Assembly (NCBI GenBank): GCA_036504595.1
Contig: DASXUX010000022.1
Location: forward strand, 18,104-82,103
Direction of reading: 5' to 3'
Source of the DNA: Planctomycetota bacterium
GTDB lineage: Bacteria > Planctomycetota > SZUA-567 > H5-PLA8
Length of the DNA stretch: 64,000 bases
Shown one piece after another: positions 19,003 to 20,616 of this stretch. Numbering within the stretch: the stretch's first letter is position 1; every line of letters begins with the position of its first letter. Both the position numbers and the translations under genes were made by a program. The notes beneath the pieces are model-generated. The model was not told the DNA's origin. It was given only the letters and a program-made list of their open reading frames with translations, and searched no databases.

Positions 19003-20616
19003 CTACTGACCACTGACCACCGCCAGCGCATGATCAATGCGCCTCAGCGTCTCCGCCTGCCCCAGCAAATACAGCGTGTCGTGAATCGGCGGACTCGCCA
19101 GCGTCCCGGTGACCGCCAGGCGTATCGGCTGAGCCACATCGCCGAGCTTCACCTGCTTCGCTTCGCAGAATTTTTTCAGCGCCTCGTCGATCGCCGGCCC
19201 GGACCACTCGTCCACGCTGCCCAGCATCTCGCGAGCCGCCCGCAAAACCTTCAGCCCGTCGCCTTGCTTCAAAACTTTCTCGACAGCCTTCGGGTCCAGA
19301 GTCTTCGGCGCCACAAAAAACAGTTCGCACCTCTCCGCAAGCTGCTTCAGCGTCTTCGACCGCTCCCGAGCCAGCCCCAGCACGTCCTTCAGCCATCCCG
19401 GCGTAGACAGCGACAGATCGTACCCGCGCTTGATCAGCCACGGACGCGCGCGTTCGAGCAGTTGATCGGCCGGCAGCGTCCGCATGTATTCGCCGTTGAT
19501 CCACTCCAGCTTCGTGCCGTTCAAGCACTCTGAAAGCCACTGCACAATTTGAGCCTCAACCGCCGGATCGGTCGTCGCTCCACCCGCAGGCACCGGCGGC
19601 GGCCGCTTGCGCGTCAGAGCGAACTGCGCCGGCGATTTGTTGATTCGGTCGAGCGAAAACTCGCGCACGATCTCCTGCAGCGGCATGACCTCGCGCCCGT
19701 CGCCCGGCGACCAGCCCAGCAGCGCCTCGAAGTTGATGAACGCCTCCGGCAGCAGCCCGCATTGCTGGTACAGCGTCACCGCGACGGGATCGCGCCGCTT
19801 GCTGATTTTCTTGCCTTCCTCGCTGAAGATCATCGGCAGGTGCGCGAACACCGGAAGCTTTTGCTCCAGCGCCTCGTAGATGAAGATCTGCCGGAACGTG
19901 TTCTCGACATGATCGTCGCCGCGAATCACATGGCTGATCTTCATGTCGATGTCGTCGATCACGCACGCGAAGTTGTAGATCGGCATCCCGTTGCCGCGCA
20001 TGATGACGAAGTCTTTCGTGGGGCGGGCCTCCGTGCCCGCCTTTCCGTCGGTAGCGCCGGCCTCCGTGCCGGCAGGAGCTTCCTCCATATACGTATCCGC
20101 CGGCTTCCCGCAGTGCCCCCGCACCGCGTCCTCAAACGCGATCTCTGTGCGGCCTTTCAGATCGATTTTCAGGTATAGCGCCGGATTCGGATCGGCCGCT
20201 GCTTGAGCTTTCTCTTCGTCCCACTTGCCCTGCTTCTTCAGCTTCTCGATCTTCCACTCCGGCAGCGGCCCGCCAGCCTCCTTCTTCGCCCAGTACGCGT
20301 GGCCGGCTTTCTCCAACTGCGCCGCGACTTCGCGATACCGCTCCATCCGCTGGCTCTGGTAGTACGGCCCGCTCGGCCCGCCGATGTCCGGGCCCTCGTC
20401 CCAGTCGAGGCCGCACCACTTCAGGCCATCGAGGATAATCTGGGTGGCCTCTTCCTTGTTGCGCTCGATGTCCGTGTCCTCAATGCGCAGGATGAACTTC
20501 CCGCCCGTCTTGCGCGCATACAGCCAGTTGAACAGCGCCGTGCGCACGCCCCCCACGTGCAGATATCCAGTGGGGCTTGGAGCGAATCGGACGCGGACAG
20601 AAGAAGAGTGGTTCAT
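19003..20616 (-). CDS. gltX: glutamate--tRNA ligase carrying a repeat-derived in-frame insertion
   Basis: RFAPSPTGYLHVGG (HIGH), KISKR (KMSKS-like). An extra PAGTEAGATDGKAGTEARP segment is encoded by two copies of the palindromic element at 20021-20076. Confidence 0.9.
   Translation of the reverse strand: MNHSSSVRVRFAPSPTGYLHVGGVRTALFNWLYARKTGGKFILRIEDTDIERNKEEATQIILDGLKWCGLDWDEGPDIGGPSGPYYQSQRMERYREVAAQLEKAGHAYWAKKEAGGPLPEWKIEKLKKQGKWDEEKAQAAADPNPALYLKIDLKGRTEIAFEDAVRGHCGKPADTYMEEAPAGTEAGATDGKAGTEARPTKDFVIMRGNGMPIYNFACVIDDIDMKISHVIRGDDHVENTFRQIFIYEALEQKLPVFAHLPMIFSEEGKKISKRRDPVAVTLYQQCGLLPEAFINFEALLGWSPGDGREVMPLQEIVREFSLDRINKSPAQFALTRKRPPPVPAGGATTDPAVEAQIVQWLSECLNGTKLEWINGEYMRTLPADQLLERARPWLIKRGYDLSLSTPGWLKDVLGLARERSKTLKQLAERCELFFVAPKTLDPKAVEKVLKQGDGLKVLRAAREMLGSVDEWSGPAIDEALKKFCEAKQVKLGDVAQPIRLAVTGTLASPPIHDTLYLLGQAETLRRIDHALAVVSGQ
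20021..20076. repeat. two tandem copies of the palindromic mini-element GYRGCGCCGGCCTCCGTGCCGGCAGG (family E) inside gltX
   Basis: gggcgggcctccgtgcccgcc at 20021-20041 and gtagcgccggcctccgtgccggcagg at 20051-20076. Core stem GCCGGC-ctccgt-GCCGGC. Confidence 0.85.

Follow-up and report, generated by a model that had tools for sequence, protein, structure and literature searches.

A short GC-rich palindromic repeat, which we call family E, lies in frame within five protein-coding genes of an uncultured Planctomycetota bacterium, in a stretch of 64,000 nucleotides taken from its genome assembly (GCA_036504595.1, contig DASXUX010000022.1; hereafter the window). The host genes are gltX, which encodes glutamate-tRNA ligase (GluRS), a recD2-like helicase gene, a glycoside-hydrolase-like (GH-like) gene, a DUF4175-like gene and a BNR/sortilin-like gene. 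The copies are insertions, being a dispersed DNA repeat that is missing from homologues of four of the host proteins. We consider it probable (about 0.72) that family E is a family of GTAG-tagged repetitive extragenic palindromic (REP) sequences, copies of which have been pasted into protein genes. The window would then be a clear example of REP-type palindromes within housekeeping proteins (GluRS and RecD2) that are not disrupted by them, here in an uncultured planctomycete.

Structure and copies of the repeat

We analyzed the window together with 18 kb of flanking sequence, amounting to 82 kb of the 230-kb source contig (JGI 3300035523, Ga0376481_000107, in which the window corresponds to record positions 18108-82107). 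The window has a GC content of about 60%, and about 90% of it lies in open reading frames (ORFs) with the expected GC bias at third codon positions (GC3). A first-pass annotation, made from the letters alone, had placed the repeat in five genes, and all five sites are borne out by enrichment of the core and by matches of 28-45 nt between genes. The 18-nt core, GCCGGCCTCCGTGCCGGC, has 7 matches in the window at up to three mismatches, compared to 0.32 expected; a count of 7 was reached by 0 of 100 shuffles, and all 7 matches fall within the five genes. An identical 28-mer is shared by gltX (20050-20077) and the BNR gene (63638-63665), an identical 23-mer is common to three copies in different genes, and the 45-nt copies in recD2, the GH-like gene and the BNR gene are 87-89% alike.

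The family-E unit is 23-24 nt long and consists of a GT[AG]G head, a GC stem of 6-7 bp, a 6-nt loop and the return stem. The stems are perfect, and the loop is CTCCGT, or GTCYYT in the partner unit, giving the stem-loop GCGCCGGC-CTCCGT-GCCGGC. The GCCGGC stem-loop proposed as the core in the first-pass annotation is therefore present, but it is part of something larger, the full unit being a near-palindrome of 44-45 nt made of two inverted GT[AG]G-headed hairpins. This head-to-head dimer, with its GT[AG]G ends on the outside, is found in the recD2, GH-like and BNR genes and partly in the DUF4175 gene, while gltX carries a tandem (head-to-tail) pair of units on its non-coding strand, 33 nt apart. 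The head is GTAG or GTGG on every well-preserved unit and GTTT on a decayed one. We count ten recognisable units at five loci in the 82 kb, with no further family-E copy in the added 18 kb of source-contig flanks. Rfam has no family for any of the window's repeats, and a literature text search with the repeat sequence returned unrelated primers only.

In gltX, unit a (20018-20041, plus strand) is GTGGGGCGGGCCTCCGTGCCCGCC, with a GTGG head, a 7-bp stem and a 6-nt loop, and its opposite strand reads AGTEARP(T); unit b (20051-20074, plus strand) is GTAGCGCCGGCCTCCGTGCCGGCA, with a GTAG head, and its opposite strand reads (AP)AGTEAGAT. The stem of unit a is GCGGGC...GCCCGC where unit b has GCCGGC...GCCGGC, a two-sided change that keeps the pairing. 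The dimer in the recD2-like gene (29063-29107, plus strand) reads VAPASAPAGSDAPAT and matches the GH copy at 89%. That copy, in the GH2/GH42-like gene (43819-43863, minus strand), reads VAPASVPAGRDAGPT and preserves the palindrome best, 17 of its 22 positions pairing over 44 nt. The copy in the DUF4175-like gene (56357-56401, plus strand) reads VAETSVPAGKDAGAT, and the dimer in the BNR/sortilin-like gene (63639-63683, plus strand), whose right-hand unit is the decayed one, reads VAPASVPAGKDAGQT.

The five host ORFs are intact, have GC3 values of 0.76-0.82 and all contain Pfam domains. gltX (19003-20616, minus strand) matches PF00749 and PF19269. The RecD2-type SF1B helicase gene (28244-30538, plus strand) matches OB_YrrC, HHH_RecD2, AAA_19/AAA_30, SH3_13 and UvrD_C_2, and the element sits between HHH_RecD2 (143-232) and AAA_19 (340-471). 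The GH-like gene (41179-45048, minus strand; 1289 aa) has matches to Glyco_hydro_2_N, Glyco_hydro_42M and Glyco_hydro_42, all of them weak. The DUF4175-like gene (55010-58858, plus strand; 1282 aa; PF13779) has the same length, 1282 aa, in the gene calls of the source contig. The BNR/Asp-box, sortilin-Vps10-like gene (62598-64000, plus strand), with weak Pfam matches, runs past the window end; it is complete on the source contig at 605 aa (locus L122, 11408-13225). A second contig (Logan SRR11794808), which encodes a protein identical to one of the window, ends 116 bp past that gene and offers no polymorphism data.

Evidence for insertion

We compared four of the five host proteins (all but the BNR protein) with their homologues. 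In an alignment of 65 GluRS homologues, the element-coded residues (approximately 178-199) are absent from every homologue, and about 37 close homologues at 70-77% identity have LEEDG--KTAKDFVI at the position of the window's MEEAPAGTEAGATDGKAGTEARPTKDFVI. At the DNA level, comparison with two homologous loci (L120 and L121) resolves the difference into a 30-nt block and a block of about 18 nt net, located on either side of conserved host codons for DGK; the two units are 9 nt apart around these codons, and the second adds about 15-18 nt net. The extra stretch of RecD2, NGVAPASAPA, is missing in 59 of 60 homologues and represents a net gain of 11 aa. The peptide is likewise missing in 6 of 6 homologues of the DUF4175 protein and in about 40 homologues of the GH-like protein (which has 265 at E<=0.001), where the loop at this site varies greatly in length. 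The ortholog comparison suggested in the first-pass annotation thus points to insertion in both genes that it named, gltX and recD2.

Six of the GluRS homologues (P0004, P0009, P0013, P0018, P0028 and P0029) have different extra segments of their own in the same loop (5-19 aa, e.g. ASEASEEAAGAESTPTVRAT). The REP-bearing loop of GluRS is, judging from this alignment, a recurrent insertion site in this clade.

The DUF4175 site can be compared with an empty site at the nucleotide level, one of few such comparisons for a REP insert within a gene. A syntenic relative (ENA ERZ25039512 contig_57323, locus L125), 80-84% identical in nucleotide sequence over 8.3 kb, has an exact gap of 27 nt at window positions 56369-56395, and host bases are not duplicated at either junction. 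Neither a target duplication nor terminal inverted repeats were found at this single site, aligned at about 80% identity. The copy described as partial in the first-pass annotation is accordingly a net insertion of these 27 nt only. A walk along the genome from gltX homologues did not reach recD2 homologues, as synteny was not conserved.

In the DUF4175 copy, the 12 nt on the left (56357-56368, GTGGCGGAGACC) align with host sequence of the relative (GGCGCGGATACG, positions 3588-3599 of L125). All three differences between them shift the window sequence towards the REP consensus, which gives the junction the appearance of a host/REP mosaic.

In AlphaFold models made from homologue alignments, the element segments of GluRS and RecD2 are predicted to be low-confidence coil loops. 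GluRS residues 177-199 are modelled as coil, with a predicted local distance difference test (pLDDT) score of 64-65 for the 181-200 blocks compared to a model mean of 92.5. RecD2 residues 272-287 are modelled as a coil loop within a beta hairpin; their pLDDT is 61-73, compared to 94-96 in neighbouring regions.

Copies in other genomes

A scan of 185,579 species genomes with a 20-mer pattern lacking the head found at least 101 loci in 81 genomes. Among the matches listed, GTA or GTG precedes 46 of 69 matches to the T variant of the pattern, compared to about 3% expected, with headed matches in 22 of the 81 genomes and in many phyla. Such T-variant matches often lie in T-rich non-coding flanks, and the 23-mer is found in plainly non-coding flanks of other genomes; E-type copies elsewhere are mostly extragenic, again among the matches listed. 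The C variant of the 20-mer occurs in very GC-rich actinobacterial genomes and lacks the GT[AG] head in 41 of the 48 matches listed; on their sequence, these headless matches are probably due to chance. A scan of metagenomes with a headed 26-mer, in which GTRG was allowed, gave 17 loci, all with GTAG. The source organism was absent among these 17 loci, and the source contig was not returned by the collection scans.

The 23-mer GT[AG]GCGCCGGCCTCCGTGCCGGC is identical in Acidobacteriota, Binatia, Rhodospirillales, Burkholderiales (Noviherbaspirillum, Massilia), 'Deltaproteobacteria', Verrucomicrobia, Planctomycetota and Armatimonadetes, and 15 copies are present in one verrucomicrobial metagenome-assembled genome, OH_PDB_75. 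This spread is a lower bound (loci L004-L098, e.g. L014, L025, L030, L047, L056, L066, L070 and L075).

In-frame copies elsewhere were accepted only when verified by Pfam, the ORF and GC3 heuristic for coding sequence being noisy in GC-rich DNA. The family-E REP is in frame in an acidobacterial sulfatase gene and in a verrucomicrobial ABC-2 permease gene, and probably also in the gene for an FG-GAP protein of another planctomycete.

Origin of the copies

If family E is a GTAG-tagged REP family, its abutting inverted units form a head-to-head dimer that resembles a REP doublet forming a hairpin (REPIN), in which an inverted REP pair makes one hairpin. This reading is supported by the second family of GTAG-headed hairpins in the window (described below), by the head found before so many T-variant matches in other genomes, and by the lack of a target duplication and of terminal inverted repeats at the single empty site. 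GTAG-tagged REPs, whose hallmark is a GT[AG]G head ahead of a short GC hairpin, are substrates of RAYT transposases. By analogy with REP systems, the hairpins would be cut and rejoined, while single-stranded, by a REP-associated tyrosine transposase (RAYT, or TnpA(REP)) of the HUH tyrosine type. Mobilisation by a RAYT stands as an analogy here because neither the 82 kb nor the fetched loci yielded a RAYT gene. Cognate RAYT genes are usually flanked by the REPs that they serve (a 'REPtron'). The GTAG tag is needed for cleavage by TnpA(REP) in vitro according to Corneloup 2021 (PMC8266576), a study of REP/REPIN-RAYT systems. Once inserted, copies may persist by having lengths that are multiples of three, by avoiding the frame that contains TAG, by adding only small flexible peptides and by occupying loops of variable length.

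Several results weigh against the REP interpretation. No RAYT gene (Y1/HUH, PF01797) was found in the 82 kb of source contig or in 125 fetched loci, using Pfam on the window ORFs, precomputed Pfam annotation on 60 kb of the source contig and a regular expression (HUH..Y..NP) on six frames of every locus; a tblastn search with an approximate E. coli RAYT query gave a best match at E 0.5, which is meaningless. None of the five family-E loci in the 82 kb is extragenic, which is unusual for a REP family. Folded as DNA, the hairpins are no more stable than shuffles (z of -0.8 to -1.45), their energies being ordinary for sequence this rich in GC. Covariation, assessed on nine units, lacks significance, about 40% of shuffles matching it. 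The hairpin is evident from its symmetry, but selection for it is unsupported by either the folding or the covariation statistics. At the DUF4175 gene (27 nt) and at gltX unit a (about 18 nt), the net insert falls short of the unit that can be recognised, part of which looks host-derived. Finally, neither family E nor the window's second repeat family (described below) has a copy in 49 kb of sequence from relatives (about 75% GluRS identity; one at about 80-84% nucleotide identity), which suggests that both families are young or restricted to the source lineage.

The short net inserts and the host/REP mosaic are not what simple cut-and-paste of a fixed element predicts, and they leave room for conversion-like or template-switch copying. 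The alternative that best survives, although we still think it unlikely, is that the repeat was copied without a dedicated transposase, through gene conversion, template switching or microhomology-mediated patch repair, with the second gltX unit possibly a local duplication. Such copying could account for a DUF4175 site that gained only 27 nt next to 12 nt moving towards the REP consensus, and for a second gltX unit of small net length so close to the first around the DGK codons. The missing RAYT gene and a 23-mer that stays identical in three copies despite their different genes also fit. However, there is a single good empty site, and since loops also vary by ordinary insertions and deletions, a 45-nt insertion followed by a deletion is possible there. 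Moreover, the GT[AG]G head is conserved over 22 genomes, which is predicted for a RAYT substrate (PMC8266576) and not by conversion alone.

We see an outside chance for a composite proposal in which one near-invariant GTAG REP, GT[AG]GCGCCGGCCTCCGTGCCGGC, present in at least seven phyla or classes, leads a genes-only life in this genome and enters genes by homology-assisted patches that leave mosaic junctions, rather than by cut-and-paste. If this were true, the cross-phylum 23-mer would imply either that one REP-RAYT system has spread horizontally or that its substrate is under an unusually tight constraint. The cross-phylum 23-mer and the DUF4175 mosaic junction are leads that could bear on the unsettled question of how REPs spread.

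It is very unlikely that family E is a classical transposable element of the miniature inverted-repeat type (MITE), or an element like the Rickettsia palindromic elements (RPEs), inserted in frame by a DDE transposase. Small size, a palindromic sequence, dispersal and in-frame location in conserved genes are shared with such elements. Against this, the empty site has no target-site duplication, the units measure 23-45 nt compared to 100-150 nt for RPE-1 and are tagged with GTAG, and Pfam identified neither an insertion sequence (IS) nor a transposase gene in the window and no transposase gene in the source-contig flanks.

Shared peptides and reading frame

The peptides reported in the first-pass annotation are correct. 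The sense strand encodes VAPAS(V/A)PAG(K/R/S)DA.. in four genes, and gltX, where the repeat is on the opposite strand, encodes APAGTEAGAT and AGTEARPT. As was claimed, the shared peptides are explained by a palindromic repeat at the DNA level and not by a conserved protein motif. The converse, that an Ala/Pro/Gly-rich linker was selected for its function or arose by convergence at the protein level and that the DNA similarity is secondary, is extremely improbable. It could draw on the four sense-strand copies sharing one frame (VAPASVPAG.DAG), on the restriction of all units to two 'benign' frames and on the synonymous nature of some differences between copies. A conserved peptide motif is nevertheless ruled out because gltX reads the reverse strand, as a different peptide, and because extragenic copies exist in other genomes, where the 23-mer lies in non-coding flanks. 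Identities of 23-28 nt between copies also extend over third codon positions, the variable columns among copies (2, 4 and 4 at the first, second and third codon positions) are not concentrated at third positions, and the peptide is missing in the homologues compared (59 of 60 for RecD2). For annotators, this means that the shared VAPASVPAG.DAG and AGTEAGAT peptides are derived from a repeat and do not constitute a domain.

It had also been pointed out that every copy preserves the host reading frame. This is true, but it largely reflects survivorship: the net inserts measure 27, 33 and 30+18 nt, all divisible by three, no insert of such a length shifts the frame, and coding sequence makes up 90% of the window. 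All units are read in two Ala/Pro/Gly/Ser/Thr-rich frames among the five that are open, which has a chance of about 1% if frames are equiprobable (our calculation), and all family-E copies avoid the reading frame that contains TAG. This suggests a peptide-level filter on surviving insertions, which explains the frame choice better than a selected motif does. Family-E loci are intragenic in five of five cases and copies of the second family extragenic in four of four (Fisher p of about 0.008, our calculation). The five of five is not by itself remarkable, given the 90% coding density and a plausible filter for tolerated inserts.

Chance similarity of GC-rich low-complexity coding sequence, of which the headless C-variant 20-mers of GC-rich actinobacteria (41 of the 48 matches listed) offer an example, is refuted for family E by the enrichment of the core over shuffles and over expectation at 60% GC, alongside the 45-nt matches and the identical 28-mer, and has a negligible probability.

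Other repeats and features of the window

The second family of GTAG-headed hairpins, GTAGCGCAATCCTCCTGGATTGCG, has four copies in the window (30535-30558, 30849-30872, 33044-33067 and 45139-45162), all of them extragenic and located at gene ends or in leaders. They follow the pattern GT[AG]GCGCAATCC-TCCT-GGATTGCG with an 8-bp stem, and the family sequence (GTAGCGCAATCC-TCCT-GGATTGCG) folds strongly, with a DNA folding z of -6.2. A GTAGCGC start and a TCC-rich loop are common to this family and family E. In the copies at 30535 and 33044, the TAG of the head is the stop codon of the upstream gene (recD2, ending at 30538, and an SPFH/Band-7 gene, ending at 33047, respectively). An additional GTGG hairpin, GTGGGGCAGGCTGTCCAGCCTGCC, follows the 30535 copy in tandem at 30567. 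A c-di-AMP riboswitch (RF00379, 81.8 bits) lies at 30679-30822 (plus strand), upstream of the SPFH/Band-7 gene, and the 30849 copy stands between its aptamer and the coding region, where the expression platform is expected.

A third repeat family of about 50 nt with an internal palindrome, CCGTTCTCCCCTCCCCGC-YTCG-GGGAGGGG..GGGGGAGGGGTT, is exclusively intergenic (18871-18920, 22566-22615 and 45221-45270). Intergenic regions also contain heptamer arrays (GCCAAGA/GCAAAGA, GGGTATC and AATGATG; 41102-41161, 51878-51960, 26348-26447 and 28117-28207), which are arranged as inverted blocks with the potential to form long hairpins and are common to distant intergenic regions. The longest direct repeats are two paralogous pairs unrelated to family E (11998-14399 and 49153-51872): tandem serpin genes with blocks of 71-83% nucleotide identity, and two MoxR-type AAA genes 1718 nt apart. 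The cumulative GC skew has its minimum at about 48.4-49.2 kb, where predominantly minus-strand genes give way to predominantly plus-strand ones, a pattern like that of a replication origin. DnaA boxes are not enriched in the window and none was found at the skew minimum, where there are two small minus-strand ORFs.

Comparison with known systems

Bacterial MITEs are IS-derived, with terminal inverted repeats and target-site duplications. Family E is like Correia/NEMIS and Nezha elements in being small, non-autonomous, dispersed, foldable and occasionally in frame within genes, but unlike them it shows neither terminal inverted repeats nor a target-site duplication at its empty site.

The first-pass annotation had likened the repeat to the Rickettsia elements. 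RPE-1 to RPE-8 are said to have been described by Ogata et al. in 2000 and 2002; RPE-1 measures about 100-150 bp, and RPEs are AT-rich and reside in alphaproteobacterial obligate intracellular hosts. Like RPEs, family E is palindromic and in frame in conserved genes, where it adds surface peptide segments without destroying function. Unlike them, it has units of 23-45 nt, a GTAG or GTGG tag and a GC-rich sequence; CGTC is the tag of the short RPE-4 and RPE-6 (PMC3733652). Family E is not a member of the RPE family, the resemblance being functional; its nearest known family is the GTAG-tagged REP superfamily.

REP/REPIN-RAYT systems were reportedly set out by Nunvar in 2010, Bertels and Rainey in 2011 and Messing in 2012. 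Family E shares with these systems a GTAG head 5' of the hairpin, a monomer length of about 23 nt, which is also that of S. maltophilia, inverted pairs able to fold into a longer hairpin like a REPIN, the lack of target-site duplication at its one empty site, as in the single-strand chemistry of IS200/IS605-like elements, and the presence of several families per genome. It differs from them in its spacerless dimers, far shorter (44-45 nt) than Pseudomonas REPINs, and in its intragenic location, and no cognate RAYT was found in the 82 kb.

The closest published counterpart comes from the study of Di Nocera, De Gregorio & Rocco 2013 (BMC Genomics 14:522, PMC3733652), which splits REPs into GTAG- and CGTC-tagged superfamilies. 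GTAG REPs are described there as palindromes of 20-40 bp in which the GC-rich stem is 6-13 bp long and the loop short, GTGG being tolerated as a tag; they are multi-copy, dispersed and mostly extragenic, typically just downstream of genes, and form head-to-head, tail-to-tail and tandem dimers (PMC3733652). Family E agrees with this description in its tag, its short palindrome and its dimer arrangement, and departs from it in not being mostly extragenic in the 82 kb. The departure does not disqualify it, given the intragenic members listed in that study, the mostly extragenic E-type copies among matches in other genomes and the 90% coding density of the window. At 6 nt, its loop exceeds the commonest loop length there, 2-3 nt.

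Intragenic REPs are most numerous in the verrucomicrobium Opitutus terrae, where dozens of copies from families GTAG-17/18/19 are in frame (PMC3733652). Their hosts include recD (exodeoxyribonuclease V alpha), many glycoside hydrolases, uvrA and DNA ligase, with tRNA synthetases among the hosts in other species, and the head-to-head dimers encode 15 aa, with 1-2 bp between partners (e.g. VAGVADPGPGSASPA or VGPALAAG). GTAG families are also present in the planctomycete Rhodopirellula baltica, where intragenic copies are found only in hypothetical proteins (PMC3733652). The suggestion in the first-pass annotation that such elements were undescribed for this kind of genome therefore does not hold.

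Like the O. terrae GTAG REPs, family E has a short GC-rich stem-loop whose outer end is tagged with GTAG or GTGG, and it forms near-spacerless head-to-head dimers that are in frame and encode about 15 aa starting with VA or VG. Both occur in the Planctomycetes-Verrucomicrobia-Chlamydiae (PVC) superphylum, with recD, glycoside hydrolases and large secreted proteins as hosts and with more than one insert in some genes. Unlike those REPs, family E has all five of its copies within genes, whereas most O. terrae copies are extragenic, its host is an uncultured member of the Planctomycetota, and its stem and loop differ in sequence from the O. terrae REPs given in the paper outside its 24 published consensus sequences. 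The phenomenon is thus already published for the PVC superphylum, and what family E adds to it is a new host and a new repeat sequence.

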